Part shown: positions 5,001-60,597 of the stretch, one piece after another
How the letters are laid out: the number at the start of each line of letters is the position of its first letter
Position numbering within the stretch: the stretch's first letter is position 1
Assembly (NCBI GenBank): GCA_017642585.1
Contig: JAGCOR010000025.1
Location: forward strand, 19,537 to 83,536
Direction of reading: 5' to 3'
DNA from: Alphaproteobacteria bacterium
GTDB lineage: Bacteria; Pseudomonadota; Alphaproteobacteria; Rs-D84
Length of the DNA: 64,000 bases
The notes under the pieces: generated by a model
What the model was told of the DNA's origin: nothing
What the model saw: only the letters and a program-made list of their open reading frames with translations
Database searches by the model: none
Position numbers and translations under genes: made by a program

Positions 5001-5026
5001 AAAAACAAATTGTTTAAATAAATAAA

Positions 5027-5050
5027 AAAGCCCGATATAATTCGGGCTTT
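5027..5050. terminator. Bidirectional rho-independent terminator between convergent clpX and ORF 5054-7405
   Basis: AAAGCCCGA-tataat-TCGGGCTTT, a 9-bp stem, with an A-run upstream and a T-run downstream. Confidence 0.6.
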
Positions 5051-5053
5051 CTT

Positions 5054-7405
5054 TTATTGGTTTGTACAATATCCCCACAATTTATTTGCACCTGTGGTTG
5101 AATAGAATTCTGGCATCAATTCATCACCAGTTGAATCATGACGACCATCACCATTATCATCTTTCCATGGAATATCAACCCATTTTCCTTCCAGATTTAT
5201 ACATTCTTTGGATAATTCTACCATTAATGCAGATTGAACTTTTCTCATAGCGGTATCCACATCACCCAATACAGATTCTGGTAATATATTTGTTTCTGTG
5301 GATGGTCTGATACAATTTTGTAAAGCATATCTGACCAATTGTTGATATAAACTGCCTATGTAATCAACGCCACATGCTACATATAAATCTTGGTCTGCGC
5401 TGATAGGTTTGCTTGTTCCGCCCATGCACGTAAACCCAGTAGGGCATAAACGACATTCATTTGCTACGTTTGGACAGAAATTTTGATCCTGTTCAAAATC
5501 TTCCTGTTGGGAATATCCGCAAGTTGCGTATAAACTGTTATCATTATGATAAAGATAATAATTGAAAGAACATGTTGTATAATGTTTTATACCTGTTGTG
5601 CAAACATAATCGGCACTCTGGGCGCTTTCTGTTTTTGTAACCAAAATGTTTGATCTGGAGAAAGGATTTGTCAAAGTTATATTACATGTTTCAACACGTG
5701 CATATCTGGATTCGCCGGGTGCGTATGCACGACATCCGTATGGGTATGAATGCAGTGAATCTTTTGTTGATACTGAACAAACATCTTGTAAGAAATCATC
5801 CAAAAGGTCAGGGCAGGTTTGTGCGATTGTTTGATCTGTGATATTGGCCATTGTGTTAACCAATAAATATAAACCATCTGTACCGCCACCATACAAATTA
5901 CTGCAAGTGTTTAATTTATCTGCACACATATCTTCGGATACTTCTAAAATCTGTCCCAATGATATTTCTGATGAATTATCAGAAAAGACTTTTAAATCAT
6001 CGGTTTTTTGTAAATAACATTTGTTAACTACATCCAGACATTCATTTTTTACATTATGAACGCGTTGTTTTTGTCTTTGGCTGATTTCCACCAACGCTTG
6101 ACGTAAAAATTCATCCCATACGGCATCTGCATCGTCGACACATAAATCCAAAGACTGATTTGCAAATTCACGTTTTTTATTTAATATCGCTACATATGGT
6201 GTGTTTTGTGCATTTCTTAAAATATCACCAGACAAAGAAATTTGATTTTCCAGCTCATAAAAATTTACAGAATAAATTGGTTCCCCAGTGGATATATTTA
6301 AATAACGTCCTGTAACATCCAGACAGTGAACATAATCTTCGCCACATGCATGTGATGCAGTTAAATCTTTTCTGACACTGGCGATACAATCATTTAATGA
6401 TAAAGAATTGTGTGCGTTATAATTGTCCAATCTGGCATCTTGCATTTTATATCTGGTTGAACGAATTGCTGCGTTGGCACTGGTCATCTTGGCATCAATG
6501 TTGCTGGCCAATAAAGAACAATCGTTTTCAATATACATACCATAAGCCGATGCAATCATTTTTATATCGGTTTCAGCACAATCTTGTGCAACCAGGGCAG
6601 AACACTGTGCGTTAACTGCATTATACAAAGATTCACCTGTCATGTTCGCAATATCTGTGCCACTGATTAAATCAGTGGTTGACCAAATAGATTTCAGTTC
6701 GCTTTTATATTTGTTATTTGATGTGTATTGTTGTTTTGAATCATTTAACACAGCAGATATATTGTTCAAAGTTTTTGCACTGGCAGAAGTATCTTTCTTT
6801 ATACTGGCTTCGCCTTCGCTGGCGGTTTGCATAGATTTTACTTCAGCAGAGGTTTTTGAAATTGCGTCTATATTGAAATCTTGGAAATTTTGCAGGTTAG
6901 TAGCAGTTTGAGATAATAACTGTTCTTTGCTTTGAATATTTTTTAACTGGCTGGAACAAACGCAACGACGATATGTTTCGTTTTGTGTTGCGCAAAATTG
7001 ATCCATACATGTGAAATAAGAATCACGACATGTTGTATAATTATCGCCAAAAGTTTTTGTGGCAGTTGTTACAGCTGCGCGTGAAGCGCGTTTTTGTTTT
7101 TGTGCGGAACGGACAGTAGTTGCACTGCGCGTTGTATTTGGACGTGACGTAATAATTTTTTTTGCCGTGTTGCGTGCAGTCGTTTTACGTGTTGCAACTT
7201 TCTTGGTTGAATTATTATTTGTTGTTGCGTTGCGTGTTGTGGTTGAACGGCTGGCACTTACAGATTTTGTGTTTGAAAAATTACGCGTAGAAACATTGGT
7301 TGTGTCGGGTCTGGATATTGTATTTTGATTACGCACAGCAGCATTGGCATTACCAATGCAAAACAAAACAGCAAGAAAAATTGTATAAATTTTTCTCAAT
7401 CCCAT
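5054..7405 (-). CDS. Secreted cysteine-rich protein, family member A (783 aa); no recognisable characterised homolog
   Basis: Signal peptide MGLRKIYTIFLAVLFCIGNANA. Basic T/R/N/A low-complexity region (aa ~31-118). Family signature CRDSYFTCMDQFCATQNETYRRCVCS. Many further Cys blocks are collinear with ORFs 7888-10083 and 10105-12759. Confidence 0.75.
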   Translation of the reverse strand: MGLRKIYTIFLAVLFCIGNANAAVRNQNTISRPDTTNVSTRNFSNTKSVSASRSTTTRNATTNNNSTKKVATRKTTARNTAKKIITSRPNTTRSATTVRSAQKQKRASRAAVTTATKTFGDNYTTCRDSYFTCMDQFCATQNETYRRCVCSSQLKNIQSKEQLLSQTATNLQNFQDFNIDAISKTSAEVKSMQTASEGEASIKKDTSASAKTLNNISAVLNDSKQQYTSNNKYKSELKSIWSTTDLISGTDIANMTGESLYNAVNAQCSALVAQDCAETDIKMIASAYGMYIENDCSLLASNIDAKMTSANAAIRSTRYKMQDARLDNYNAHNSLSLNDCIASVRKDLTASHACGEDYVHCLDVTGRYLNISTGEPIYSVNFYELENQISLSGDILRNAQNTPYVAILNKKREFANQSLDLCVDDADAVWDEFLRQALVEISQRQKQRVHNVKNECLDVVNKCYLQKTDDLKVFSDNSSEISLGQILEVSEDMCADKLNTCSNLYGGGTDGLYLLVNTMANITDQTIAQTCPDLLDDFLQDVCSVSTKDSLHSYPYGCRAYAPGESRYARVETCNITLTNPFSRSNILVTKTESAQSADYVCTTGIKHYTTCSFNYYLYHNDNSLYATCGYSQQEDFEQDQNFCPNVANECRLCPTGFTCMGGTSKPISADQDLYVACGVDYIGSLYQQLVRYALQNCIRPSTETNILPESVLGDVDTAMRKVQSALMVELSKECINLEGKWVDIPWKDDNGDGRHDSTGDELMPEFYSTTGANKLWGYCTNQ
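6950..7030 (-). other. Family signature motif, member A (C-x2-Y-x2-CMD-x-FC-x9-C-x-CS)
   Basis: Translation CRDSYFTCMDQFCATQNETYRRCVCS at aa 126-152. Confidence 0.8.
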
Positions 7406-7470
7406 CCTTTACTTTTTAATAATAATATCAAAAACAGAGTATTTTAGGCAAGGGTATTTTGCAATATATA

Positions 7471-7497
7471 AAAAAAATTCCACATGAAGTGGAATTT
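7471..7497 (-). terminator. Rho-independent terminator of infA
   Basis: AATTCCAC-atgaa-GTGGAATT hairpin directly after the infA stop, followed on the minus strand by a T-run. Confidence 0.6.
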
Positions 7498-7749
7498 TTA
7501 ATTTTGAGAACTTTGTTCATTGGTCGCATGTGTGCGTTCTACGAATGTTATACGACCTTTGTCTAAATCATATGGGGTCATTTCAACATGCACCTTTTCA
7601 CCAGTGTTAACCCATATTCTTGCTTTTCTCATTTTTCCGCACATAGTAGCCAAAATCATATGACCGTTTTCAAGACGAACACGGAACATTGTATTTGGCA
7701 ATCTTTCTTCGACTGTGCCGGAAAAAACAATAACATCATCTTTTGCCAT
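7498..7749 (-). CDS. infA: Translation initiation factor IF-1
   Basis: [30 protein letters not shown]...RITF is the typical IF-1 S1-fold sequence. It carries a slightly extended C-terminus. Confidence 0.9.
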
Positions 7750-7830
7750 AAATAAAATCCCTTGTTTGATTTTGTTCCGTTTAATAATATTCGCACGATG
7801 CTAAAATTGCAAGAAGTTTTTATATTACGC

Positions 7831-7859
7831 TTGCAATAGATTTCCTTTTTTGATAAAAT
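7831..7859 (+). promoter_or_regulatory. Candidate promoter of the cysteine-rich B-C operon (TTGCAA, 17 nt spacer, TGaTAAAAT)
   Basis: TTGCAA at 7831-7836 and an extended -10 TGATAAAAT at 7851-7859. The -35 is half of an inverted repeat, ATTGCAAG (7806-7813) / CTTGCAAT (7830-7837). Confidence 0.4.
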
Positions 7860-7887
7860 ATTCAAGAAAGAGTGTAGGGATAATAAT

Positions 7888-10083
7888 ATGAAAATTAACG
7901 TTTTTTCAGTATTGTTGATATGTTGTGCAACTGTCGCTGTGGCTGCAGATCGCAGTCAGGCGCGTGTTGGAATGGCTGGGGCCCGTGGTAGTATGCGATC
8001 TGCATCTATCAGTGCTAAAGACGTAAAAGAAGTCAAAGAGGCTGTTGCTGCGAAGGAAGAAGTAGCGGAGCCCGAAGAAGTCAGTGTTGAAGATGTTGTT
8101 GACGATGTCGACGATGCGGAAGAAATTGTTGAAGAAGAAGTCGAAGAAGTTGTAGAAACCAAGAAATCCGGCAAAAAAGAAAAGGCTAAGGCGGTATCAG
8201 GCGATTGTCGTGATGCATATCGTGAATGTATGGATAATTTCTGTATGTTAGACGAAAGCCAGGGTGAACGTTGCGCATGTTCTGAAAATATAAATTCTGC
8301 CAAAAAGAAGATTAAAGAGGTTTTGGATATCCAAGCCGAAGCGGATAAATTATTTACCGAAGGTGTGGAACGTGAACAGTTGGGTGCCAAGGCACGTCTG
8401 GTTTTCGGTGAAAATAATCAAAATAAAAAAGTTTCAAATGCTAACTTTATGTCTTGGTTGAGCAGTGACAGTGAAGAGGACGAAGAAGTTGGTGAAGATG
8501 TCACAATGGGTGAAGATTTGTATAAAATGGCTGCAAAGTATTGTAAATCTGAATTGGCATCTTGTGGTGACAAGGGTGAAATGGAAGAAATGTTATATAC
8601 TCGTTTGGTTGCCCAGGATTGTAAAAGTTATGATGCATACTTGAAAGATCAAAAAACAAATGCAGAATCTAATAAACGCATAGCGGAAGCTGCGGTCCGC
8701 AAGGCACGTTTGGAAATGTTAGATACTACAAACAAATATAATCGTGGTGAATGTTTGTTGGCTTATCGTTCTTGTATTGCGGATAAAGGTGGATGCGGAA
8801 CTAATTTCGAAAACTGTTTGGATGAAAAATTGTTAAAACGTCGTTCTAATGCATGTGATAATGTTTTGGATCAATGTATGGCGACACGTGATTATGTTAA
8901 AAAAGATTGGGAAGAAGAAATGAAAAGCGTTTTGGCCGAAGCGACCAAGTACGCAGATAAATATGAACGCGCAACATGTTTGGCAAAAATTCAAGATTGT
9001 TTGGAAGAAGGTTGTTCAACATCTACAAATGCTGAATGTTTAAGTGATGTTAATGTTGCTGCTGGTATTTGCCCAATTATTACAGAATGTGATGCAAAAA
9101 TCCCAGGATTACAGGCTGTGGTCAATGATAAATTGGGATATTTGCAAACAAAATTCTGTGAAAATGATGTAGATAAATGTTTGCGTGATAAATGCGGTCA
9201 AGATTTCACCAAGGCTGAATGTGTTGGTAAAAAACCATACGAAATTGCTGCTTTGTGCCCACAGAGTATGTTCCCGTCATGCAAAACAGCAGAACAATTT
9301 GATATAATCGTTCAATCTGCGATGTTGCAGTTAGATTATCAAATGTTGCAAGGTTGTGTGAATTATTTCAGTGAACAATTATCCAAGGTTTGCGGAACAG
9401 ATATGACCTGTTTGCCAATAGATACAGTAATCGAATCTTTGACCAAGTTGCCAGATGATTCCAAGAAGTTGACAGAATTGCGTAAAACTGTAATCGCTAA
9501 TTCTGATGCTGCGGTGGAAGAATTCTTTCAACAGTTTGAACAAGAAAAAACAGTTGCTGCATGTTCAGACAGTCAAAGTGTCAAAGCCAAGAAAGTTAAA
9601 GGTAAAGAATCCGTTGGTGTGAACGTTTTCAATACTGCAAAATTGATAGCGAAGATGTCCGCTGAAAATCGTAATTTGCGTGAATTGGATTCTAAGATTG
9701 CAGAATTGGCACGCAAAGAAGATATTGAAACAGCTCGCAAGACATGTTTAGAAACTTATAAACCAGAATCACCAAAAGAATCTAAGAGTAATTACAGTTA
9801 TATCCATACTGTTTCATTTGAAGAAAAATTGCGTAATTGCCACGTGTGTCGTATACAACAAGTTTGTGAAGAAGGTGGTGAATCCAAGGCAACATCTGCT
9901 TTGAAAGCTGCTGCGGGTGGTTTGTCTGCTGGTGCGTCTGCTGGAACTATGATAAGCGCTGGATGGGGTACTGCGATTGGTGGTGTTGTGGGTGCGGTTG
10001 GTGCCGGTATTTTGGGTGCCGCGTCTGGTGGTAAAAAAGATTTTTGTCAGGAAGTTGAATCTTGCGAAGATATAAACATGTAG
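7888..10083 (+). CDS. Secreted cysteine-rich protein, family member B (731 aa) with a C-terminal glycine-zipper segment
   Basis: Signal peptide MKINVFSVLLICCATVAVA. Acidic E/V/D tract (aa ~46-91). Signature CRDAYRECMDNFCMLDESQGERCACS. 36 Cys in the mature part by my hand count. Tail is CHVC...AGGLSAGASAGTMISAGWGTAIGGVVGAVGAGILGAASGG...CEDINM. Confidence 0.75.
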   Translation: MKINVFSVLLICCATVAVAADRSQARVGMAGARGSMRSASISAKDVKEVKEAVAAKEEVAEPEEVSVEDVVDDVDDAEEIVEEEVEEVVETKKSGKKEKAKAVSGDCRDAYRECMDNFCMLDESQGERCACSENINSAKKKIKEVLDIQAEADKLFTEGVEREQLGAKARLVFGENNQNKKVSNANFMSWLSSDSEEDEEVGEDVTMGEDLYKMAAKYCKSELASCGDKGEMEEMLYTRLVAQDCKSYDAYLKDQKTNAESNKRIAEAAVRKARLEMLDTTNKYNRGECLLAYRSCIADKGGCGTNFENCLDEKLLKRRSNACDNVLDQCMATRDYVKKDWEEEMKSVLAEATKYADKYERATCLAKIQDCLEEGCSTSTNAECLSDVNVAAGICPIITECDAKIPGLQAVVNDKLGYLQTKFCENDVDKCLRDKCGQDFTKAECVGKKPYEIAALCPQSMFPSCKTAEQFDIIVQSAMLQLDYQMLQGCVNYFSEQLSKVCGTDMTCLPIDTVIESLTKLPDDSKKLTELRKTVIANSDAAVEEFFQQFEQEKTVAACSDSQSVKAKKVKGKESVGVNVFNTAKLIAKMSAENRNLRELDSKIAELARKEDIETARKTCLETYKPESPKESKSNYSYIHTVSFEEKLRNCHVCRIQQVCEEGGESKATSALKAAAGGLSAGASAGTMISAGWGTAIGGVVGAVGAGILGAASGGKKDFCQEVESCEDINM
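8206..8283 (+). other. Family signature motif, member B
   Basis: Translation CRDAYRECMDNFCMLDESQGERCACS at aa 107-132. Confidence 0.8.
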
Positions 10084-10104
10084 GGCAATACAGGAGAAGA
10101 GAAC

Positions 10105-12759
10105 ATGAGAAAAATATTAAAATTTGGTTTTCTGGTTGGAATATTGACTGTATTTGTAGGTACGGTTGATGCGTTTGCTGCAAAAAAGCAAGCTGCGATA
10201 AATATGGGAACCAAAGTTCGTGGCAAAGTAGAAGCCAAAGGTGTTTATGATCAAGAATGTTATGATGCATATTATGGCTGTATGGATCAATTCTGTATTG
10301 TAGATAATGAAATGGGCGGATCGTGTAATTGCAGTAATGAAGTGAAAAAATATGAATCTGCATTGGACGAAATTAAAAATATGTTGGCAGAAGCCGAACG
10401 TATTGGAACGGAAGAGGTTGAAAAAGTTCAGGCTGGTGCAAATGCGGATATTTTGTTTAATGGCGAAAGAAAATATGATTCAAAAGGCAATGTGGTAGCG
10501 ACAAAAGCAACGAAAGATAAAACAGAAATTAACAAATCTCTGTGGTCAACATCTTCATTGTATGATAATGATGAAGAAGAGAACGAAGAAGATGAAGAAG
10601 CAGAAGATAGCGTAGCCGGAAAGACAGGTGATGAATTATATGCCGTTGCAAACAAAATTTGTAAAGCACAAATGGACAAAGAATGTGCGGGCGATTTAAA
10701 AGTTTTGGTCCAAATGTATTCACGTCAAATTGCGTCAGATTGTAAAGGTTTGGCGAACAGTATCGAACAAAAGAAGGGCGAAGCCAAGTCCGCTTTGGCA
10801 GAAGCAAACAAAGCGGTGCGTAGTGCTTTGAAGGAATCTTTGGAAGAATCTAATAAATACGATCGTGGAACATGTATGGTCGAATATAAAAAATGTATGC
10901 GCACTGAAGATGCGTGTGGTGAAGATTGGTCAAATTGCGTGTTTACGATTGCATCTGAAAATATGCAAAACAACTCATCAGGTAGCGTTGCAGGAACCAA
11001 AGTTGAAACTATAAATACTTATGATATTACTGCATCTACAATGGAAATTTTGGAATCAAAACGTTTCATCTGTGAAAAAGTTTTGGATAGTTGTGTCGCG
11101 GTTCGTAATTACATATGGGATGATTTCTTACGCGAAGCAGCGCCAACGATCCGTTTGGCAGAACAAAATGTTGAATCCAACAAACGTCAATCTTGTTTGA
11201 AAGATATTTCCAATTGTATTCAGAAAGCATGTAAAGATGATATCGAAGGCAAGGGCGTTGACACAATGGATGCATGTTTGGCGCGTCCAGATATGGCACG
11301 TTCTTTCTGTAAAATTCAAATTGATCCTTGTGAACGTATGGAACCACAAATTTGGGATTACGTGGTAAGTAAATTGGCCGCTATGCGTGTTGATGCATGT
11401 ACCCAGGAAGTTAAAGATTGCTTTACATCCGAAGACAGATGTGGAAAAGATTTTGTAAATTGTATTGGTATGGATTATAAATATATCCATGATATCTGCC
11501 CAATCGATAAATTGGTTGTATGTAAACAAACAAACCCAGATTTCAAAATGTCTGATTTGGATGATATGTTGATGGGATTGTATCTGAATATTGATAATAA
11601 AGCTCTGGAAAATTGTCAAAAATTAGTTGATGAGAAAATGTTAGAGATTTGTGGCAGTACAACAGATTGTAACTCTTTTGCTACCGATGATTCTTTGGGA
11701 ACAGGCAGTTTAAATTATCAGAAAGATGGTAGTGTACATGTGGTTACAGGTAGAATAAGTTTTGGAAAGATTAAAATTGGAACATCAGCCGAAGATGCAG
11801 GGTTGATAGATATTCAAGGTTATGTGGATTATTTATCTGAAGCTCAGGTTGTTCCAGAAGAATATGTTGGTATTGCTGATTCTATTTTGTATGAATTAGA
11901 AAACATCCAAGGTACGATAAATCGTGCGGTGAAATTGATAGAAAACGATCCAAAAATCCAATTTTGTGTCGAAGGACGTGATTTGTCACAAATCAAGGGT
12001 GCAACAAAAACTAAATCTGGTAAAAAGAAGACAGAAAAAACCGAAGGACGTTTCCCAAATTTGTTAAATCAAGTGAAAATACAAATAGCGAACGCAGCGT
12101 TACGTAAAGCACAAGACAATTATAATCTAAAATATAATGAATATGTGGCGAAAGCGATGTCTGCGGCAGATGTGGATATGGCAAATTTGATGTGTAATAA
12201 ATTACCTGCGGGTGGTGACACAGGAGTTAGCAAACAGGAGCTTGATGGACCTGGATTAGAAAACGTTAATGCATTGGTGTTGCAATATGGTGGTGTTGCA
12301 AATTCATCTTTGTTTAAGGGTGGTACGAAGTCATCACAAAGAATTGGTGGGGCAAGGATGTCCACAGCCAGTGGTAGTGCCGCTGGTGGTTCAGATGGTG
12401 GTGCACTTGGCACAGTTGCTGGTACCATGGCAGGAATGTCTGGTAGTTTCTTAAGCATGGGTGGAAAGATAGCCAGTGCAGCTGTTTCCTTTAACCCTGC
12501 AGGTATGATTACTGATGCGGCGACAAAGGCGGTTGTGGCATTAGCATCTGATAAATACTCATCTGAATTTGATGGTGGGGTACGTGAAATGTGGTCTACG
12601 TTTAATCGTGAAACACGTATGTGTCATGTTTGTACATCAACAATAACTCAAGATTGTAAAAACAAAGGTAGTCGTGGATTCTTGGGATTGTGGGATTCAC
12701 GTGGTGTAGAATGTAAATCGGGTACGCCAGTTGAAACATGTCAGGATATTCAAATGTAA
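10105..12759 (+). CDS. Secreted cysteine-rich protein, family member C (884 aa)
   Basis: AGGAGAAG RBS and a 21-nt gap after member B. Signal peptide ...VGTVDAFA. Signature CYDAYYGCMDQFCIVDNEMGGSCNCS. Gly/Ala/Ser/Met-rich hydrophobic region near the C-terminus. Tail MCHVC...CQDIQM parallels member B. Confidence 0.75.
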   Translation: MRKILKFGFLVGILTVFVGTVDAFAAKKQAAINMGTKVRGKVEAKGVYDQECYDAYYGCMDQFCIVDNEMGGSCNCSNEVKKYESALDEIKNMLAEAERIGTEEVEKVQAGANADILFNGERKYDSKGNVVATKATKDKTEINKSLWSTSSLYDNDEEENEEDEEAEDSVAGKTGDELYAVANKICKAQMDKECAGDLKVLVQMYSRQIASDCKGLANSIEQKKGEAKSALAEANKAVRSALKESLEESNKYDRGTCMVEYKKCMRTEDACGEDWSNCVFTIASENMQNNSSGSVAGTKVETINTYDITASTMEILESKRFICEKVLDSCVAVRNYIWDDFLREAAPTIRLAEQNVESNKRQSCLKDISNCIQKACKDDIEGKGVDTMDACLARPDMARSFCKIQIDPCERMEPQIWDYVVSKLAAMRVDACTQEVKDCFTSEDRCGKDFVNCIGMDYKYIHDICPIDKLVVCKQTNPDFKMSDLDDMLMGLYLNIDNKALENCQKLVDEKMLEICGSTTDCNSFATDDSLGTGSLNYQKDGSVHVVTGRISFGKIKIGTSAEDAGLIDIQGYVDYLSEAQVVPEEYVGIADSILYELENIQGTINRAVKLIENDPKIQFCVEGRDLSQIKGATKTKSGKKKTEKTEGRFPNLLNQVKIQIANAALRKAQDNYNLKYNEYVAKAMSAADVDMANLMCNKLPAGGDTGVSKQELDGPGLENVNALVLQYGGVANSSLFKGGTKSSQRIGGARMSTASGSAAGGSDGGALGTVAGTMAGMSGSFLSMGGKIASAAVSFNPAGMITDAATKAVVALASDKYSSEFDGGVREMWSTFNRETRMCHVCTSTITQDCKNKGSRGFLGLWDSRGVECKSGTPVETCQDIQM
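10258..10332 (+). other. Family signature motif, member C
   Basis: Translation CYDAYYGCMDQFCIVDNEMGGSCNCS at aa 52-76. Confidence 0.8.
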
Positions 12760-12777: not shown

Positions 12778-12806
12778 AAAAACCGCCGTTATTGGCGGTT
12801 TTTTGT
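12778..12806 (+). terminator. Rho-independent terminator after the B-C operon
   Basis: AACCGCC-gttatt-GGCGGTT followed by TTTTTG. Confidence 0.65.
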
Positions 12807-13332: not shown

Positions 13333-14313
13333 ATGAAGGTGAGAAATACTGTTTTTTCATTGCTGTTGATGCTGTCTGTGGCACCTGCATTTGCGGGGTG
13401 GGAATACGATGGATATTATGTGGATGATGGCATATACACCGAAGATGGTTTACGATTTGTTATCAATGTTCGTGGTGGTTTTTCTTTTGCCGATGCCAAA
13501 ATGCAAAATGATATTGGCAGTTTGTATGGCTATTATTATGTAAACGATGATAATGGTGATGTTATATCGTGGATTGGATATGAGAACGCAGGATCGCCCA
13601 GTGGTTATACTTTCGCGGGATATGGCGATTTATCTAAATTGCCAATCAAAAAAAGATTTGATAAAAGTGTTTTCACTGCTGGGGTCAGTTTGGGATTTAC
13701 TGTGCCAAATCATACCCAATGGCGTGTTGAAGCGGGCTATGATCACATAGCAGAAACAAATTATAATCAAATGCCTTTGATAGAAGGTAATTTGCCTGTT
13801 ACTGGTGGCAGTATAGAAAATGCAGTGGTTCATGTCGGCAGTATGGGGATAAAATCTACTATCGCGACAGATGTTATATCTATAATGGGATTCTATGATT
13901 TCTTTAACGGCACATACAAACCTATGAATCAAATCGTTCCATATGTTGGGTTTGGAATGGGGTATGCTATATCAAAAACAACACTACATTTGTCTGATAT
14001 TTATGGCGATTTGTCTACGGATACAGATTTACAAAAATATGGCACTGTGGACAGCGAAGGTATTTTACAATTTGATAACCCAACTGATGCCAGTTTGTAT
14101 CCTGATTCTACGGATATCGCTCTGTTGGGGGCGGTGGGGTTGTCTTACGGTATAACATCTTATGCGTTCTTAGATTTCCAGGCGCGATTAATTTATATTC
14201 CAAAAATCATGTGGAATATTTCAAACAGTGCAGGCACAATGCATCGCGAATGGTTCAGTGCTGAAAATATGGTTTACACCAATTTATTGGTTGGTGTCAG
14301 ATTTGAATTTTAA
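13333..14313 (+). CDS. Outer-membrane beta-barrel protein (family not resolved)
   Basis: Signal peptide ...LSVAPAFA. Alternating aromatic/Gly-rich strands. The C-terminal ...LLVGVRFEF ends in Phe, as in OMP sorting signals. Confidence 0.5.
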   Translation: MKVRNTVFSLLLMLSVAPAFAGWEYDGYYVDDGIYTEDGLRFVINVRGGFSFADAKMQNDIGSLYGYYYVNDDNGDVISWIGYENAGSPSGYTFAGYGDLSKLPIKKRFDKSVFTAGVSLGFTVPNHTQWRVEAGYDHIAETNYNQMPLIEGNLPVTGGSIENAVVHVGSMGIKSTIATDVISIMGFYDFFNGTYKPMNQIVPYVGFGMGYAISKTTLHLSDIYGDLSTDTDLQKYGTVDSEGILQFDNPTDASLYPDSTDIALLGAVGLSYGITSYAFLDFQARLIYIPKIMWNISNSAGTMHREWFSAENMVYTNLLVGVRFEF

Positions 14314-22363: not shown

Positions 22364-23566
22364 TTGTTTAAAAAATTTGTGTTTTTTATTTTGTTTTGTG
22401 TGATGTTGTCTGGGGCTTCATATTCAGACGATCTGGCCAATGTCCCCAGTATAGATGCGGAAACAAACGCAACTGCGGTGGAAAACAGTATTAAAATTAA
22501 CGAAGAAGAATTTGATAGAATTGTTCAACAAGTAAAAAGAAGATATACTGATTTTGATTGGGCAAAATTTGATGGTTTGGATGCCGGGGCTAAACGTGTT
22601 GTAATCAAAAATTATTTGGCGCGTATTGCGTTTGATTCAATCAAAGAAAATTATATTAGAAACTTCTATGCCAAAGCAACAGATGGTGTAGAAATCCAAG
22701 AAAGTGGATACAACACAATCTATTTCAATAAATCTGATGCTAAATACAGAACCGAATATATTACAGGAAAAGGTTTGATAGAAAAAGCTGGAAGAAGATG
22801 CAGAACTTGTGATGATGAGGGGAATTTTAGACAGCAAGATGTTGCTTTGTTTGATGAATTAATAGCACAAGAAATTGCAAATGCACCAGTGGCTATGCAT
22901 TGTGAAAAATATTGTATGGAATCTACATCTGAATCAAGTGAGATGGCACGAGAATTAAGAAATGCTTTCGCGGAATTTCAACAAGCTAATGAAGAATACA
23001 CCGCAGAAATACGCAGAACTGGTAGTTCGCGTCAAGAAATTCGTGAAGCTCGTAAAAGATTGCGCGAAGCGGAACGTGCATATAAAAAATTGGTAAAACG
23101 GGCCGGCAGGGAAACAGGCAAAACGTGGTTCTTTAGACCTTATAACACAACGTGCGATTTGGTCAGTGTGGAATGTTGGAACGTTGAATTAAGACCTGAA
23201 ATGTATGAAAAAGTCATGTTTTCCATAGATAAAACTGATGATACGATAGACAGTTTGCATTTTGAGTATGATAATCTGACGAATAATACCCATACGGAAT
23301 CAGATGCATATAGAAATTGTAATTGTGAACAAACCAGCGTGGACGCTTTGGTTAATTGCAATTGTCATATCAGTTTTTATGATGAAATCCAAGATCTGTC
23401 CGCGGTCAGAAAATGGGAAAATCAAGAACGTATAGATATAAAAAATGGTATCAATCAAGACAGAGATGCAAATGGACATTGGAACCACGATTGGGAAAGT
23501 AACACAGTACCAGGGGGCAGAGTGGTTGGACGACAATTGGATTTGAGTGGAACTTCGACAAGATGA
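22364..23566 (+). CDS. Secreted hypothetical protein (400 aa), first gene of a three-gene operon
   Basis: TTG start with AAAGGAGAG 4 nt upstream. Signal peptide MFKKFVFFILFCVMLSGASYS. Paired Cys motifs (CRTC, HCEKYC, CNCE...CNCH). Its stop overlaps the next start (ATGA at 23563-23566). Confidence 0.65.
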   Translation: MFKKFVFFILFCVMLSGASYSDDLANVPSIDAETNATAVENSIKINEEEFDRIVQQVKRRYTDFDWAKFDGLDAGAKRVVIKNYLARIAFDSIKENYIRNFYAKATDGVEIQESGYNTIYFNKSDAKYRTEYITGKGLIEKAGRRCRTCDDEGNFRQQDVALFDELIAQEIANAPVAMHCEKYCMESTSESSEMARELRNAFAEFQQANEEYTAEIRRTGSSRQEIREARKRLREAERAYKKLVKRAGRETGKTWFFRPYNTTCDLVSVECWNVELRPEMYEKVMFSIDKTDDTIDSLHFEYDNLTNNTHTESDAYRNCNCEQTSVDALVNCNCHISFYDEIQDLSAVRKWENQERIDIKNGINQDRDANGHWNHDWESNTVPGGRVVGRQLDLSGTSTR

Positions 23567-24582
23567 AAATAAAATTTATTTTATTTTTGTTGTTATTATC
23601 TGTCAGGGGCGTTTATGCCGCTGAGGCTGATTTTGATGCAATGTCGATTATAGATTTATATGAACATGCAGAAGCTGTGAATTATGATTATGAAAATTTA
23701 AAGAAAAATTATGATAATGCAAAAAACAAAGAACAATCTTTGGCAAACAGAACCTTGACCGCTGCAACCACTGCCGCAACCGGATTGGGAATGATGGAAT
23801 TAATGATGGGCAAAGCGGAACAAAAAGCGGATGCAGATGCCGAACAAGATATGGCGGCATACATGGCAACAATGCGTTGCACATATGCGGGTGGTAAATC
23901 TGTGAAGGCCGGCCCCGAAGAAATAGAATTACCTGGTGGCAACGATGGTAATTTGATGTCATACCGCAGTGAATATATAGCATTGGCAAAAAGTTTGAAA
24001 GAACGTAAAACAGCAATGGACATGTTACCAGGTATAGAAAGTGAAGAGATATTAGATAAAGCAGAAATGGGGTTATACGATGATGAAAGTAAGGGTATAA
24101 CGGGTGGAACCTATGCTTCATTGTATCGCGCCAAGATAGGCAGCGAAGAAGATCAGTCTAAGATAGATGCTGACAAAGAAAAATCTGCTAAACGTGTTAA
24201 GTATGGTGCCATAGCAGCAGCTGGGGGAACAGCATTGGGTATAGGTGGTAACAGTTTGATAAATGGTAAATTGGGAGAATTGATAAAGAACAGAAAAGAT
24301 AAGAAATCTGGGAATAAAACAGATGATGATGTAGTTAAACAATTAAAAGAAGGTTTATCTTCAGCGGGAATGACAAATGTAGATAAATTAGATTTTAGTA
24401 ATTTAGATTTAAGTGGATTGAAAGATAAAATAGGTAATGTAGATTTTGGATCATTGTCATCCAGTTTAAAGGGAAAAGATGCCAGTCAGTTATTAAACAC
24501 ATCGAACGCCGAAGGATTCTCGTCTTCGTTTGGCAGTATGTTAGGTAACAGTGGAGAATTGGGCGGATTGTTTGGAAATTAA
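23563..24582 (+). CDS. Secreted protein (339 aa) consisting mostly of the conserved C-terminal module (copy 1)
   Basis: Signal peptide MKIKFILFLLLLSVRGVYA. From aa ~45 it aligns with the C-terminal ~295 aa of ORF 24632-26752. Two Gly/Ala hydrophobic segments and a Gly-rich end ...GSMLGNSGELGGLFGN. Confidence 0.7.
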   Translation: MKIKFILFLLLLSVRGVYAAEADFDAMSIIDLYEHAEAVNYDYENLKKNYDNAKNKEQSLANRTLTAATTAATGLGMMELMMGKAEQKADADAEQDMAAYMATMRCTYAGGKSVKAGPEEIELPGGNDGNLMSYRSEYIALAKSLKERKTAMDMLPGIESEEILDKAEMGLYDDESKGITGGTYASLYRAKIGSEEDQSKIDADKEKSAKRVKYGAIAAAGGTALGIGGNSLINGKLGELIKNRKDKKSGNKTDDDVVKQLKEGLSSAGMTNVDKLDFSNLDLSGLKDKIGNVDFGSLSSSLKGKDASQLLNTSNAEGFSSSFGSMLGNSGELGGLFGN

Positions 24583-24631: not shown

Positions 24632-26752
24632 GTGAGAGGGATAATAAAGACATTTTTATCTATAATGTTTTTTGCCTGGGTGTTTTGTATGCCTGGGGTT
24701 GCTGGTGTTGGCAATGTTGATAGCAGATTTTATGTAGATAAACAAATGTGGGCAACGGCACCGTATAAAAATTTTGTGCATTTATATGGGTGGTTATCAA
24801 ATACAGGAAGTTCTTGCACAGCACAATATGTTTCAAAAAATATAATTGTATCAGCAGGGCATTGTTTAAAAGATAATGCAAGATATGAAGTACATAATTA
24901 CGCTGGCGACAAGATTGATTTAATGTTGCTTGAAACGGGGTACAAAGGAGTACTTGAAGAAGATGGGGATTGGGCTGTATTTTTGGTTAAAGACCCAAAA
25001 TATTACAGCGATAGTTTTTTCAATCTGAAGGTTCCTAATGTTGAAAATACCAGCATAGGTGTTTTGAATGCAGGATGGGGATTTGTCAGAGTTTTGGAAG
25101 ATTGGGAAATTCAAAAAATACAAGAAATTTTGCCGACAATTGATAACAGGTTAGACAGAAAAGAGTTCTTTAGGATTTTGGATGAAAAGTTGGTAGAGGC
25201 TAATATCAGACCTATCAGAGAAACTATGGTTCAAAGTTTAAAGGCGAGTGAATGTATGATATCTGCCCATAGATACAACAATGTATCTCCTGATGTTCTG
25301 CCTTCGACGTGTGATTCATGGCAGGGTAACAGTGGCGGGGGATATGTTGCCAGGGGTGGTAATGATCTGTATGGGGTATGTTCTTTTGGACCTGCTGATG
25401 TTGCAATTGAATTTACAGAGTCTTCTGAAAATCGTGCGTTTCTTGCATCATCTAAACAATTTGTTAATGTTGTAAATAAATACATAGATAAATTCAGTAA
25501 CCCAGAATATACGGCATGTTTTGTTCTTGGAAAAAAATGGAAACGTAATACTTGTAAATGTCAAGGTACAGAGACTTGGGATAATGTGAATTACAAATGT
25601 GTGCCAGCCGAAAGTGCACCGCCATCATCATCAGATGGATCAAATGATAACACGGATAATACCGCAGACGATGAAAATGGTATTACAGAGGGAACAGGTG
25701 TAGTTACCGATAAAGCCATAGATGATTTAACAAGAGATGTTGATGATTCTGGAAAACGTCTTGATAAAAAGAAAGCAAAAATTTCATCTGGGGTAACCAA
25801 GAAAGATGTATTTGATATTATTGATAATTGGGCTGATTACGAAGTAAAAACAGAACAATTAGAGCAACTGAAGAAAGCATATGAGGAAGCCAAAGCGAAA
25901 GAACAGTCCATGGGGAATAAATTATTAACTGCAGCCACAGTTGCCGCAACCGGATTGGGAATGATGGAATTAATGATGGGCAAAGCGGAACAAAAAGCGG
26001 ATGCAGATGCCGAACAAGATATGGCGGCATACATGGCAACAATGCGTTGCACATATGCGGGTGGAAAATCTGTAAAGGCCGGCCCCGAAGAAATAGAATT
26101 ACCTGGTGGCAACGATGGTAATTTGATGAAATACCGCAGTGAATATATAGCATTGGCAAAAAGTTTGAAAGAACGCAAAACAGCCATGGATATGTTACCA
26201 GGTATAGAAAGTGAAGAGATATTAGATAAAGCAGAAATGGGATTATATGATGATGAAAGCAAGGGTATAGAAAGCGGAACATACGCATCATTGTATAGAG
26301 CGAAACAGGGCAGTGAAGAAGACCAAAAGAAGATAGATGCTGATAAAGCCAAATCAGAAAAGAGAGTTAAGTATGGTGCCATAGCAGCAGCTGGTGGAAC
26401 AGCATTGGGCATAGGTGGTGACAGTTTGATAAATGGTAAATTGGGAGAATTGATAAAGAACAGAAAAGATAAAAAATCTGGGAATAAAACAGATGATGAT
26501 GTAGTTAAACAATTAAAAGAAGGTTTATCTTCAGCTGGAATGACAAATGTGGATAAATTAGATTTTAGTAATTTAGATTTAAGTGGATTAAAAGATAAAA
26601 TAGGTAATGTAGATTTTGCATCTATGTCATCCAGTTTAAAGGGTAAAGATGCCAGTCAGTTATTAAACACATCGAATGCGGAAGGATTCTCGTCTTCGTT
26701 TGGCAGTATGTTGGGTAACAGCGGTGGATTGGGCGGATTATTTGGAAATTAA
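24632..26752 (+). CDS. Secreted trypsin-like serine protease fused to the conserved C-terminal module (copy 2), 706 aa
   Basis: GTG start gives a signal peptide with an R/K n-region (ATG 24665 is an alternative). His in VSAGHC (aa 77), candidate Asp in GDWAVFLV, Ser in CDSWQGNSGGGY (aa 234). S/D/N/T-rich linker. The C-terminal ~295 aa are almost identical to ORF 23563-24582. Confidence 0.7.
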   Translation: MRGIIKTFLSIMFFAWVFCMPGVAGVGNVDSRFYVDKQMWATAPYKNFVHLYGWLSNTGSSCTAQYVSKNIIVSAGHCLKDNARYEVHNYAGDKIDLMLLETGYKGVLEEDGDWAVFLVKDPKYYSDSFFNLKVPNVENTSIGVLNAGWGFVRVLEDWEIQKIQEILPTIDNRLDRKEFFRILDEKLVEANIRPIRETMVQSLKASECMISAHRYNNVSPDVLPSTCDSWQGNSGGGYVARGGNDLYGVCSFGPADVAIEFTESSENRAFLASSKQFVNVVNKYIDKFSNPEYTACFVLGKKWKRNTCKCQGTETWDNVNYKCVPAESAPPSSSDGSNDNTDNTADDENGITEGTGVVTDKAIDDLTRDVDDSGKRLDKKKAKISSGVTKKDVFDIIDNWADYEVKTEQLEQLKKAYEEAKAKEQSMGNKLLTAATVAATGLGMMELMMGKAEQKADADAEQDMAAYMATMRCTYAGGKSVKAGPEEIELPGGNDGNLMKYRSEYIALAKSLKERKTAMDMLPGIESEEILDKAEMGLYDDESKGIESGTYASLYRAKQGSEEDQKKIDADKAKSEKRVKYGAIAAAGGTALGIGGDSLINGKLGELIKNRKDKKSGNKTDDDVVKQLKEGLSSAGMTNVDKLDFSNLDLSGLKDKIGNVDFASMSSSLKGKDASQLLNTSNAEGFSSSFGSMLGNSGGLGGLFGN

Positions 26753-33459: not shown

Positions 33460-36400
33460 ATGACTAAGCATTTTTTACTTGGTATTTCAATATTACCCGC
33501 ATTGTTAGTGATGCCTGCAATGGCAGTTGATGTGGCAAATTTAGATGAATTGATGGTTGCATTGCAAACTGGCGGTAACATTAATCTGACAGATGATATT
33601 GTGATTAATGGCGGAATGCCTGTTGTTGCAAACACTGTTATAGACGGTGGCAATCATGGTGTAACACCTATGACATTTGCTGTCCCCAGTAAAATTGGTT
33701 CTGTAAATGCGTATCAAGGAACTTTGGGGCAAGGAACCATAACTGGTATAGATGATGTTTTTTATTATGCAAACAGCACATTAGCCGTTGGTAATAAAAT
33801 ATATTCAGATTCTGGCAAAACAGACGAAGTTGGCACAATTACATTTAAAAGTGGCACGATTTATTCTGTTGGTCAGGCAACAACCGCGACATTGACACGC
33901 GATCCATCACAAGACGTGTTCGCTTCTAATAAAACTTATTTGGCATTTACTACATCATCAAATGAAACTGTTTATGCATATATAAGTGGTGCCAATAAAA
34001 CAGAAGCAGATTTGACAGCATCTACATTGTTCTATTCAACTGCTGCCACAACCAATCCAGTTGGAATGCAGGGTGCTACATTGGTTGAAGATGGTGTATT
34101 CTCTACAAACCAATATGATACTTTTGATTTCTCTGTAACTGGTAAACCTCATGATATTTATGAAATAAATGGTGATACAGTATATTATGATTATAACAAA
34201 ACGCCAACTTATTACTATTCAAGTCCTGCGTTAGCTTCAGATACAAAGGCATATATCGTTTCTGGTAGTTCTGTGCAGTCATTTAAGAATAATTTGAATG
34301 TTGCTGCTGGGACAGATTTAACTGTTCAAAACATGGAATTTAACGGAATACAAAATTCAACATCTTTAGAAAAGGGTGGAGTCATATATTCTGATAATTC
34401 GGCTTCTGAAACAAAAAATAATATTACATTAGATAATGTTACTATGCAGAATAATATTGCAGGTAACGGTTTAGTTTATACGAAGAATTCAAATTTGGTT
34501 GTATCAGATATAGAAGCGACAGGTAATACTGGTAGTGTTTTTTATATATTGGGTTCTGATGCAAATATAAGTGGGACTTTTATCGGTAATCACGCATTAT
34601 CTGGTGGTGCGATAGACGTAACTTCCGGTAGTAATTTAACAATTTCTGGTTTGTTCCAGGAAAATTATGCAAGCACAAATGTTGCTAATGCTGCGGGTGC
34701 TGTAAATTCTGCACAAGGCGCTTTGACAATTTTGGATGGCACACAATTCAAGAACAATTATTCTAAAAACGCGAGTGCGGGTGCTGTAAATGTTTCTGGA
34801 TTATCAACGACACCAGGTAAAGGTGGATATTTAACCGTTGGTAATAATGTTATATTTGACGGCAATACAGCAGGTTTTCAAAGCTTTGATTCAAATGTTG
34901 TGACAAAGACAACGGCAAATGGCGGTGCTATGGTAATTGGTGCGTTGATGGAATCACCTACATTTGGCACAGGGGTCAAATTTAAAAACAACAGAGCGGT
35001 AAACCAAGGTGGTGCGTTGGCATTAACAGGCGCTGCAGCTGATGATGCTGGTATGATTTTCAATAATGGTATTGAATTTGATAACAATTCAGCGTCGCAG
35101 GGTGGTGCGTTTGCTATAACTGCAAATATCAAAACAACATTGGATGGTTTGTCATTTACAAACAATCATGCAAATGGCGGGGACAATGCGATTGGTGGTG
35201 CATTGGTTGTATCGGGCAGTGTAACAAATCAAACTACACCTGAAAATGCAGCCAGCAGAGTGAAAACATTGACTATCACCAACACTTCATTTGAAGATAA
35301 CCAGTCAGATACCGCTGCTGGTGCGATTGGTCAAACAATGATTACTGCTTTCAATGGTAGTAAATATTCACAAGGTATGACCATAGATGTTTTGAACAGC
35401 ACTTTCACAGATAATACAGCAGGCGCAGAAGGTGGTGCGATAGTTTCTGATGCTATATTAAATGTGACAGGTTCTGCATTTGAAGGAAACCAGACGACCG
35501 GTACAGTAATCGGGGTAAATTCAACAGATTCTAATGAAGGTGGTGGTGCAATATTTATGTATGATGACAGTGTTGCGACCATAACAAATTCTACATTTAC
35601 ATCTAATGAATCTGGTACTTGGGGTGGTGCGATTTCTACACGTGGAATTTCATCCGCTCAACCAGGTGCGAATTCTTCTTTGACAGTAAACGGTGGTACA
35701 TTTACAGATAATAGCGCTGTATATGGTGGTGCGATTGCGAATTCTTTGCAAAATACTGTAAATGACCAAGAAGAAATCACAAAATATGGTGCTGTGGTTT
35801 CTGGGGCAACATTCAAAGAAAACAGTGCCACACAATTTGGTGGTGCGATTTACAATGTCGGGGATATAACAGTTAATAACACTGTGTTTGGTGGGGTTGA
35901 TTTAACAGATCCACAAAACCCTGTGTCATTGGGCAATACCGCATTGAAGGGTGGCGCGATTCTTAACTCTGGCAGTTTGACACTGTCTGGCGGTTCATTT
36001 ACAGGTAATACTGCAACAGGAACAGGAAAAGATGCAGCAAACAAAGATATGGGTGGTGGTGCGATTTATTCCGACCTGTCCACAAGTGTAACCGATATCG
36101 ATAATGTTAGTTTTGTTGGAAATTCAGCAAATTATATCGGTGGTGCTGTGTATGTATATTCTGGTACTGCCAATATAAATAATTCCACATTTACAGATAA
36201 TTCTGCTAACTGGGGCGGTGCGATTTATACAAAAGCACGTCCTGCGGATGGACAGCAGATTTCTGATTTGGTAATTAACAATTCAACATTTACCAATAAT
36301 AGTGCAAAAGGTGTTGGTGCGGTTGGTGTTATGAGAAAGGGTATTATTACAAATACTACTTTCACTGACAACCATGCAACAGATTCCACAGATGACGGGG

Positions 36401-52430: not shown

Positions 52431-52431
52431 T

Positions 52432-54484
<2,053 letters not shown>

Positions 54485-57839: not shown

Positions 57840-57893
57840 TAAACTATCAAGCACTGGAATTCTTCGGTGCAATTTCCAAAAAAGGTATTTTTT

Positions 57894-59604: not shown

Positions 59605-60597
59605 TTATTTTTTATATGTTTCGATTACGCTTTCAGCGGCAGTTTGAATTTTTTCTAATGCCTTTTCGTATGTGGCGCAATCGCGGGTAATTTCAGTTTT
59701 ATATGCATCGCGCATATTATTTGACATATAATTGCAAGCACGCAGATGATTTACACAATATGTATGACCGGCGCCAAATGCATTTTGACCGCGAACACGG
59801 CTTTCCATATCGGCCCAATCAATATTCAAAGCATTATCTAAACTGACCCATGGGTTTGTGCCAGTGTAAACACCGACCGTTGAATCCCAATATGCCTTGA
59901 TTTCTGCATCTGTGGCATCTGTGTTATATTTCAATTTGATAATTTCTTGAATCAAAGAATCAATTTTTGGTTGATATTTAGAATCAATTTGAGTCAATTT
60001 TGCACTGCAGAAACAGCGGTTATATGCGGTATTTGAACGTTCGCAATATTCATCCATGCATTCTTTGTAATCTGCAAAACATTTCTGTGAAGATATTGTT
60101 GAACTGGAATTATAATTTGCCCTGACATTTGTTGTTCCAGAACGTGTTGTGCTGCGCAGTGCGGTGCCACGTGCTTTGACCTGGCGGTTTGAAAGATTAC
60201 GATTTGCGTTTCTGGCGCGTGCATTTGCAGTGGCCGAACGAACCGTAACTGATTTTCTGGGGACAACACGACGGGCCGTGGGTTTTGTTGGTGCAGGCTG
60301 TTTTTGTGCAGGTGCCGCGGATCTCGCCGTTGTGGCACGTGCATTTGTTTTGCGTTTCACAACACGGCGTTTGCCCATTGTTGATTGGTTAGAATTGCCA
60401 GATGCTGTCTTTTTTTCAGATTTTGTTGCGCCCACCAACCCCAAAGCATTATTTGATTGTGGTTGATTGATAGATGAAGGATAAACATTTTTATATAAAG
60501 ATTTGTTTATAAAACGATTGCCCGTTTCGACCCCAACAGACATAGTTGGTATCAACAACAAACCGAACAACAAAGAAGCAATTAAACCTTTCCTCAT
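59605..60597 (-). CDS. Secreted cysteine-rich protein, family member D (330 aa, short form)
   Basis: Signal peptide. Basic R/T/A/N low-complexity tract (aa ~74-165) like member A. Signature CFADYKECMDEYCERSNTAYNRCFCS. Second block YCVNHLRACNYMSNNMRDAYKTEITRDC. Confidence 0.7.
   Translation of the reverse strand: MRKGLIASLLFGLLLIPTMSVGVETGNRFINKSLYKNVYPSSINQPQSNNALGLVGATKSEKKTASGNSNQSTMGKRRVVKRKTNARATTARSAAPAQKQPAPTKPTARRVVPRKSVTVRSATANARARNANRNLSNRQVKARGTALRSTTRSGTTNVRANYNSSSTISSQKCFADYKECMDEYCERSNTAYNRCFCSAKLTQIDSKYQPKIDSLIQEIIKLKYNTDATDAEIKAYWDSTVGVYTGTNPWVSLDNALNIDWADMESRVRGQNAFGAGHTYCVNHLRACNYMSNNMRDAYKTEITRDCATYEKALEKIQTAAESVIETYKK
60004..60081 (-). other. Family signature motif, member D
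   Basis: Translation CFADYKECMDEYCERSNTAYNRCFCS at aa 173-198. Confidence 0.8.

Follow-up and report, generated by a model that had tools for sequence, protein, structure and literature searches.

The 64,000-nucleotide (nt) stretch of DNA analysed here, called the window below (assembly GCA_017642585.1, contig JAGCOR010000025.1, positions 19,537 to 83,536 of the forward strand), derives from an alphaproteobacterium of the Rs-D84 lineage and encodes four signal-peptide-bearing proteins with conserved cysteine patterns, paralogs A, B, C and D. They represent a large, ancient and uncharacterised family that is specific to the Rs-D84 lineage and its relatives. We tentatively suggest, at a probability of about 0.45, that they are Sec-exported, disulfide-stapled helical proteins forming a stable structural element of the cell envelope. 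A (5054..7405, minus strand, 783 amino acids (aa)), B (7888..10083, plus strand, 731 aa) and C (10105..12759, plus strand, 884 aa, in the same orientation as B) surround infA, the gene for translation initiation factor IF-1 (7498..7749, minus strand), which lies between A and B; the listing of open reading frames (ORFs) agrees with the initial annotation in the coordinates, strands and lengths of the three and in the position of infA. Paralog D (59605..60597, minus strand, 330 aa), also an ORF, was identified by tblastn and hmmsearch.

The shared ancestry of the family is indicated by several lines of comparison. BLASTP yielded E-values of 2.4e-48 for B and C (26% identity over 493 aa), 4.8e-28 for A and C (25% identity over 391 aa) and 5.4e-10 for A and B, bearing out the paralogy that had been read from the three sequences by eye. 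D was recovered by tblastn (E 2e-7 to A) and by hmmsearch with the family profile (E 2e-43), and a family search across the window returned A, B, C and D and no further member. In an alignment of 59 sequences (A, B, C, D and their orthologs), the N-terminal signature and the collinear blocks that had been numbered 2-4 in the initial annotation occupied common columns, and the residues invariant across all four paralog groups were, in C numbering, C52, Y56, C59, D61, C64, C74 and C76, together with G175, C186, C194, Y205, D212 and C213. The signature C-x6-C-[ML]-D-x-[FY]-C-x9-C-x-C, then G-x2-L-[YF]...C-x6/7-C-x18-C, was invariant in these 59 aligned A, B, C and D sequences, and a stricter regular expression of it matched 89 of 149 diverse representatives. 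A composition-driven artefact as the source of the shared blocks, a concern of the initial annotation itself, was rejected because of the significance in BLAST and hidden Markov model searches, the in-register invariant columns and the low ratios of nonsynonymous to synonymous divergence (dN/dS) given below. Taken together, the alignments and searches indicate that A, B, C and D are a true paralogous family.

All four N-termini contain a basic n-region, a single hydrophobic stretch (residues 3-25, Kyte-Doolittle 1.9-2.2) and an AxA-type site, and this pattern is kept in orthologs; by such a heuristic reading, the Sec-type signal peptides proposed at the outset hold, and export of A-D via the Sec pathway is indicated. 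It is the signal peptides only that point to an envelope or surface location of A-D. The lipobox [LVI][ASTVI][GAS]C was absent, with C16 of A and C12/C13 of B preceded by F, I or C, and these signal-peptide cysteines (A C16; B C12, C13) were merely 27-38% conserved, so that the lipobox with a conserved +1 cysteine of bacterial lipoproteins was not found.

The cysteine framework of the family is conserved to an extreme degree. A, B and C contain 32, 38 and 36 cysteines, respectively (4.1-5.2% of residues), and since C12 and C13 sit in the signal peptide, mature B has 36, the same number as counted by hand before. All 36 cysteines of mature B were at least 99% conserved among 80 species-level orthologs and all 36 of C at least 97% conserved among 75, and 27 of the 31 of mature A were at least 85% conserved among 65. 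The spacing C-x6-C occurs 5, 8 and 10 times in A, B and C, compared with about one occurrence in shuffled sequences (P 0.002 to <0.0002; for B, 8 observed vs 1.3 expected, P=0.0002). On the predicted helices, helix geometry suggests that cysteines spaced i/i+7 suit stapling to a neighbouring helix better than chelation of a single ion. Each of A, B and C has one CxxC, and from general knowledge of metal sites this disfavours metal chelation for most of the cysteines. The mature cysteine number was even in 107 of 130 diverse family representatives. The invariant cysteines, the even counts, the single CxxC and a DsbA-like gene in the lineage thus lend indirect support to the disulfide-rich fold proposed in the initial annotation, a fold that is probably stapled by about 18 intramolecular disulfides.

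This DsbA-like oxidoreductase, found in related loci, has 274 aa, an N-terminal transmembrane anchor and a CGYC or CPFC active site (Pfam DSBA, E 4e-20 to 6e-17), indicating that the lineage has at least one periplasmic thiol oxidoreductase. Its gene (L041 11970-12794; L037 12860-13690; L099 10001-10825; L096 6034-6858) is located 1.3-2.4 kb downstream of C in two Enterousia genomes and follows recO in the loci inspected (L041, L099). Relatives of the enzyme were present in 57 metagenome loci, and a family member was encoded within 10 kb of the DsbA-like gene in 11 of the 26 metagenome loci that span at least 12 kb; in L096, the distance from it to the start of a downstream 706-aa family member is 148 nt. 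UMGS860, which carries the A-infA-B-C cluster, likely encodes the DsbA-like enzyme about 19 kb from B, if both records belong to one contig.

AlphaFold2 models of B (predicted local distance difference test score (pLDDT) 64.9, predicted template modelling score (pTM) 0.39) and of A (pLDDT 68.1, pTM 0.41) agree in an almost wholly helical core (pLDDT 70-94), in disordered tails and linkers, and in a small C-terminal domain of mixed secondary structure with a 3-4-stranded sheet; A and B are predicted, with moderate confidence, to fold mainly into alpha-helices. In B, the signal peptide (aa 1-20) and an acidic disordered linker (aa 21-104, net charge -11) precede an 8-Cys N-module (aa 105-281; 8200..8730, plus strand; C-x6-C-x4-C-x9-C-x-C then C-x6-C-x18-C), which, judged from the alignment columns, is the sole module common to A, B, C and D. 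Behind the N-module lie three helical 6-Cys repeats in tandem, each about 60-70 aa long (aa 283-358, 358-420 and 418-486; 8734..9345, plus strand), with the form C-x6-C-x4/6-C(G)-x6-9-C ... C-x5-7-C, and hhalign aligned the repeat segments with each other in register (E 1.6e-5 and 1.7e-5, probability 78-79%). Beyond the repeats, more helices extend to about aa 623 and are followed by a C-terminal beta 'knot' built on C(H/R)xC-x5-7-C, a motif common to A, B and C. Between the beta strands of this knot, B has an inserted glycine-zipper-like hydrophobic segment (aa 662-715; 9871..10032, plus strand; 29% Gly, 25% Ala), which is its sole hydrophobic segment besides the signal peptide (Kyte-Doolittle 1.63 at 694-712), has continuous [GAS]xxx[GAS] spacing over residues 666-710, and is conserved at a majority fraction of 0.76-0.78 with pLDDT <50. 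B and C end in ...CEDINM and ...CQDIQM, respectively, both containing the conserved C-[ED]-D-[IV]-x-M.

The other paralogs are variations on this plan. The signal peptide of A (aa 1-22, from sequence) is followed by a polycationic, Ser/Thr/Asn/Arg-rich disordered tail (aa 23-120; 7046..7339, minus strand; net charge +19; pLDDT <50), whose sequence is poorly conserved in orthologs and whose character is kept. A putatively Cys-stapled helical core (aa 121-576, AlphaFold2), a variable patch (aa 571-660) and a well-predicted C-terminal domain (aa 600-783, pLDDT up to 94) with CRLC-x5-C inside make up the remainder. C consists of a signal peptide (about aa 1-23/26), a conserved, putatively Cys-stapled core (aa 50-522), a polymorphic module (aa 523-830; 11671..12594, plus strand) whose Gly/Ala/Ser-rich stretch is missing in some orthologs, and a C-terminal Cys knot (aa 831-884). 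D comprises a signal peptide, a long polycationic tail (net charge +28) and the 8-Cys N-module, and nothing else.

Candidatus Enterousia belongs to the order Rs-D84. Genomes of Rs-D84 and Enterousia are mostly <1 Mb, without respiration and with most biosynthetic pathways missing, and a partner-dependent lifestyle has been suspected for these uncultured bacteria, for which no partner organism has been identified (PMC12306168). They are widespread in ruminant, horse, bird and human guts. A, B and C form separate orthologous groups with 826, 957 and 1281 database hits, respectively, and the closest database proteins were all named 'hypothetical protein' and came from metagenome-assembled genomes (MAGs) labelled Alphaproteobacteria. 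A profile search of 1.84 billion cluster representatives (clusters at 50% identity) returned 1015 clusters at E<=1e-3, 559 of them at E<=1e-30, and the few named distant members were again 'hypothetical'. Among GTDB species representatives, 425 loci had a relative. Copy number and synteny, which the initial annotation had pointed to as a check, were surveyed in the best 80 of these 425 species loci, which are titled Candidatus Enterousia or uncultured Alphaproteobacteria / Rickettsiales and were sampled from the rumen and from horse, bird, rabbit and human guts. A(-) infA(-) B(+) C(+) was the order in 80 of the 80, wherever the flanks reach, and the orthology of A, B and C was strictly 1:1:1 with no copy-number expansion inside the cluster; the infA of related loci is annotated as eIF-1a (PF01176).

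A more distant locus gives some time depth to this arrangement. On a contig with 54% GC from the JGI 3300027984 metagenome (L081, 3033-12877), all three orthologs flank infA in a mirror-image arrangement with secG inserted; A' has 1143 aa and 70 Cys (40% identity to A), B' has 757 aa and again 36 Cys (52% identity to B), and C' has 881 aa (48% identity to C). Since this locus keeps all three, the triplication is old, and in this lineage the set has the character of a core feature. There is no sign of a mobile-element origin, as neither C against phages nor B against plasmids gave a tblastn match, and A-D are vertically inherited core genes of Rs-D84 / Candidatus Enterousia. Family members were also present on an activated-sludge contig (L129), and family members together with the DsbA-like gene were seen on non-gut contigs, from activated sludge at least (L129, L130, L132, L134, L135). 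The family may extend beyond animal-gut Rs-D84.

Genome pairs of the window with near relatives (L083, L030) were used to estimate dN/dS and synonymous divergence (dS). B had a dN/dS of 0.064, the A core one of 0.057 and the C core one of 0.108, in comparison with 0.025-0.034 for infA, 0.049 for the M23 peptidase and 0.095 for the outer-membrane-like neighbour (13333-14313), and B was the most conserved member. The cores of A, B and C are under purifying selection, with overall dN/dS of 0.06-0.12. These low values also answer, as far as sequence allows, the earlier doubt that the ORFs might not be expressed. Higher values were obtained for the variable patch of A (aa 571-660; 0.32) and for the C-terminal part of C (0.32-0.48). 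The dS of A, B and C reached 0.42-0.63 (1.6 in the C-terminal part of C), 2-10 times the values that these pairs gave for flanking housekeeping genes (clpX 0.04, pgk 0.11, infA 0.15-0.20, M23 0.31); possible reasons are a weaker codon bias and recombination from divergent alleles.

The variation in C has a structure of its own. Typing of its module over aa 523-730 (11671-12294) in 195 orthologs, drawn from orthologs P0001-P0120 and loci L001-L080, assigned 159 to one type, 33 to another and 3 to neither, and the C of the window carries the minor type (33/195). The module shares 46% identity between types and 64% within types, whereas the core shares 71% in same-type pairs and 68% in different-type pairs. 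The minor type occurs in 8 of the 14 clades of the conserved N-terminal core, and both types occur together in five. Module type is uncoupled from core phylogeny, and this suggests that the two types are an old polymorphism, maintained or shuffled by recombination. An old recombining polymorphism is the pattern expected for a protein part exposed to an interacting partner.

The A-D family matches nothing characterised. Searches of A, B and C against Pfam-A and NCBIfam at E<=1 returned sub-threshold noise only (DUF3256, Bacteriocin_IIc, a lipase model, Pcc1), Pfam gave no match on D, and a Pfam search of 48 diverse long family members at E<=1e-3 produced a single DUF7631 match at 2.5e-4 and nothing else. 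Three family alignments searched as profiles against PDB sequences, up to E=10, yielded chance matches only (ribosomal protein S20, SSA1, NSP1, nsp7). Foldseek comparison of the B and A models with PDB gave best E-values of 0.44 and 0.31, neither significant, and that of the A model with BFVD a best E of 0.05. The initial annotation could not assign its blocks to a characterised domain family and had looked to structure prediction with Foldseek for a possible answer; both the sequence and the fold searches leave the family without a significant match. Proteins of the A-D type are nowhere described in the Enterousia / Rs-D84 literature examined.

Given these properties, a structural role in the envelope could be pictured as follows. 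A-D would be exported by Sec and fold into mainly alpha-helical structures, with disulfides in the 8-Cys N-module, the three 6-Cys repeats and the C-terminal 5-6-Cys knot, and their oxidation would probably be carried out by the membrane-anchored DsbA-like enzyme of the lineage. Together they could constitute a stable, protease-resistant envelope scaffold. B might serve as its conserved base, held in the membrane by a glycine-zipper hairpin, and C, as the co-transcribed partner of B with the same C-terminal knot, might turn its polymorphic distal module outwards, exposing it to possible selection by a partner cell, a phage or host immunity. With their polycationic tails, A and D might bind anionic envelope polymers or partner surfaces. 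A more far-reaching version, which we regard as rather doubtful, would have an Rs-D84 coat in which the disulfide-stapled A-D scaffold depends on an unusual Dsb system, the tip of C attaches to a host or partner, and balancing selection keeps the polymorphism.

Nevertheless, several points weigh against a disulfide-stapled envelope scaffold. The confidence of the models is moderate (pTM 0.39-0.41), and the number of conserved cysteines is odd in A. No beta-barrel, lipobox or known sorting signal was found in A, B or C with Pfam, NCBIfam and the models, so that a way through the outer membrane is not recognisable, and a screen of the 64-kb window for Dsb-like CxxC ORFs found no DsbA-like gene. 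Furthermore, conditions in the gut lumen are reducing, and respiratory chains are reported to be absent from the lineage (PMC12306168), which leaves the re-oxidation of a DsbA-like enzyme unexplained. The polymorphism of C could also reflect relaxed constraint plus recombination, and it is this polymorphism alone that speaks for a surface exposure of C.

Several other explanations draw on the same observations. It is conceivable, at rather long odds, that the proteins are adhesins or parts of a contact apparatus, with long disulfide-stapled stalks that present the C-terminal module of C as a variable tip, together with the polycationic tails (net charge +19 in A, +28 in D), to bind a partner or host cell that supplies the bacterium with metabolites. 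Such a function would suit a lineage without biosynthesis and standard transporters, for which an obligate symbiont or parasite lifestyle has been proposed (PMC12306168), and it would be in keeping with the two main, recombinationally mobile types of the C module, the dN/dS of 0.32 in the variable patch of A, the synonymous divergence of A, B and C above that of flanking genes, and the presence of a PMP-repeat protein in the same window. However, B and the cores of A and C are conserved like housekeeping envelope genes (B dN/dS 0.064), the strict 1:1:1 orthology comes with no copy-number expansion in the cluster, and the proteins contain no known surface-export or adhesin domain; an adhesive function also overlaps with an envelope scaffold and does not exclude it. 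The glycine zipper of B raises another and unlikely possibility, namely that the proteins are secreted membrane-active effectors or toxins, in which the zipper of B, together with the Gly-rich stretch of C, inserts into a target membrane and forms pores or channels for nutrients and the Cys-rich body acts as a delivery scaffold. The zipper is highly conserved and is the sole hydrophobic stretch past the signal peptide, it has a weak similarity to class IIc bacteriocins (E 0.16), and the organism must take metabolites from outside (PMC12306168), but the Bacteriocin_IIc match stays far under the Pfam cut-off (12.5 vs 27.1 bits), the segment is absent from A and D, and its counterpart in C is hypervariable or, in some orthologs, deleted. 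The A-D genes have no linked secretion system, and the segment, being short and placed between beta strands, fits an anchor as well as a pore.

The anoxic habitat and the reported lack of respiratory chains for Dsb re-oxidation (PMC12306168) would favour cysteines that are not disulfide-bonded and, in reducing surroundings, instead bind metal (Zn, Fe) or buffer metals or thiol redox state, and a metal knuckle could be seen in the C(H/R)xC that is conserved once per protein. We consider this quite improbable, as there is only one CxxC per protein, C-x6-C on helices would place the thiols about two turns apart, which by helix geometry is unsuitable for one ion, the cysteine count is even in 107 of 130 representatives, the lineage has a DsbA-like oxidoreductase, often encoded nearby, and Sec export proceeds in the unfolded state. 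It is highly improbable that A-D are divergent homologs of a known Cys-rich envelope family, such as OmcB/OmcA, the Sel1-like repeat proteins Hcp or F-type TraN. General traits (signal peptide, high Cys content, host-associated bacterium) and the PMP repeats elsewhere in the window are all that these have in common with A-D, whereas no Pfam or NCBIfam match was found at E<=1 in A, B and C or at E<=1e-3 in the 48 members, and no PDB match by sequence or fold; OmcB, from general knowledge, is made of beta-rich DUF11, and the models here are helical.

The intergenic regions of the cluster contain candidate transcription signals. The gap between B and C is 21 nt (10084-10104), and an intrinsic-terminator-like hairpin (12778..12803, plus strand; 11-bp stem with 5 GC pairs, then a T tract) that starts 19 nt past the C stop is the probable end of a B-C transcription unit. 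A bidirectional terminator-like hairpin (5024..5053, both strands) is situated between clpX (plus) and A (minus), and another (7473..7499, minus strand) lies 3' of infA, which implies that A has its own promoter, with a candidate at 7422-7451. Promoter-like sites occur upstream of B and of A at a frequency no higher than in shuffled sequence and are therefore candidates only. The hairpins fit a joint transcript of B and C and a separate one of A; of the B-C operon with its own signals, as first described, the narrow gap and the terminator-like hairpin stand, and the promoter, showing no excess over shuffles, is reduced to a candidate. The genomic neighbours include an OmpA-family protein, the outer-membrane-like protein (13333-14313), the M23 peptidase, CtpA and a BOF protein. 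A translational role suggested by the adjacency to infA was dropped, because the synteny is conserved with separate terminators and because, in L081, infA does not have the same orientation relative to the paralogs.

The window also encodes further putatively exported proteins. The ORF at 33439-38718 encodes a 1759-aa protein with Chlam_PMP repeats (E 1.7e-25) and zero cysteines, for which no autotransporter beta-domain match was reported at E<=0.01; of the 'Pmp-type autotransporter' in the initial annotation, the PMP repeats are upheld and the autotransporter part is not. Signal-peptide-like N-termini without a Pfam match were seen in the ORFs at 22364-23566 (400 aa, 11 Cys) and 23563-24582 (339 aa, Gly-rich), and the ORF at 55055-55855 (266 aa, 6 Cys, Gly-rich C-terminus) likewise has no Pfam match; all three are outside the A-D family according to the family search. 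These observations suggest that the window encodes many lineage-specific exported proteins. A 706-aa ORF (24632-26752) combines a signal-peptide-like N-terminus and an N-terminal trypsin-like serine protease domain (Pfam Trypsin, E 8e-9) with a long Asp/Ser/Asn-rich C-terminal extension, and it may merit attention since a published survey reported no secreted proteolytic enzymes in the related lineage UBA9783. Two adjacent ORFs of about 240 aa (31918-32655 and 32636-33358) are evidently mutual paralogs with the common motifs F..KFPL, R.YE and DWED. D adjoins rho (57867-59162) and is divergent from two ORFs that, read by eye, resemble a TolC-type outer-membrane factor (60772-62100) and a membrane-fusion protein (62090-63262). 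The ORF at 52240-52755 (171 aa, 16 Cys) is almost certainly spurious, lying antisense to enolase (52432-53697, minus strand).

A, B, C and D together amount to about 8.2 kb, roughly 1% of a genome of <1 Mb, in an order that is fixed lineage-wide, so that the family is among the few large lineage-specific investments of these bacteria and a prime candidate for their envelope or cell-contact biology. This share of the genome, the fixed synteny, the invariant Cys framework in a non-respiring anaerobe and the recombining two-type module make the family more than a routine case of 'hypothetical protein'. How a non-respiring anaerobe could form and keep about 18 disulfides per protein is a puzzle in itself, and, if the models are right, the fold is one without a solved relative. 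Studies of populations and of host association could make use of the two types of the C module, and the conserved core of B could provide a lineage-specific marker or antigen for enrichment and imaging.

The top, non-significant Foldseek neighbours, alpha-actinin/spectrin repeats and MUN or exocyst-type domains, are helical like the A and B models, but with E-values of 0.3-0.4, TM-scores of 0.16 or less and no sequence similarity, and since those proteins are cytoplasmic, eukaryotic and free of disulfides, the resemblance is a generic helical one. Residues 662-715 of B are Gly/Ala-rich and hydrophobic with [GAS]xxx[GAS] spacing, like glycine-zipper proteins (the Rickettsia 17-kDa antigen, SlyB/Pcp, class IIc bacteriocins). 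In contrast to these, B has no lipobox and the segment is a small insert in an otherwise unrelated 731-aa protein, and the only match of Pfam glycine-zipper families to A, B and C was Bacteriocin_IIc on B (E 0.16, 12.5 bits vs a cut-off of 27.1). The segment may work like a glycine zipper without belonging to those Pfam families.

Conceptually, A-C could also be compared with surface proteins of eukaryotic parasites, namely the DBL domains of Plasmodium and the VSPs of Giardia, which are helical or Cys-dense, protease-resistant extracellular modules with polymorphic, recombining parts. Neither DBL nor VSP had a Pfam match in A, B and C or the 48 members, and the A and B models had no Foldseek match to them in PDB; Giardia VSPs contain many CXXC, in contrast to one CxxC each in A, B and C, and DBL and VSP proteins form variant multigene families, whereas A-D are bacterial, single-copy, syntenic core genes. 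Profiles of Sel1 (Helicobacter Hcp) and F-type TraN likewise had no match in A, B and C at E<=1 or in the 48 members. OmcB and OmcA of Chlamydia, the parallel drawn in the initial annotation, come nearest in setting, as they are exported, very Cys-rich proteins of a host-dependent bacterium with a reduced genome, and they co-occur with PMP proteins, of which the window has a repeat-bearing counterpart. OmcB has a basic N-terminal region used for attachment, which is loosely like the polycationic tails of A and D. The chlamydial proteins are joined by intermolecular disulfides in an outer-membrane complex and pass through a developmental redox switch. OmcB is built of beta-rich DUF11 repeats, however, while the A and B models are helical in the conserved core, and OmcB, OmcA and DUF11 profiles gave no match in Pfam-A (A, B and C at E<=1; 48 members at E<=1e-3) or NCBIfam. 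The homology side of the parallel therefore falls away and the likeness holds as analogy only, within what is a familiar theme in host-dependent microbes, that of secreted Cys-rich envelope proteins.

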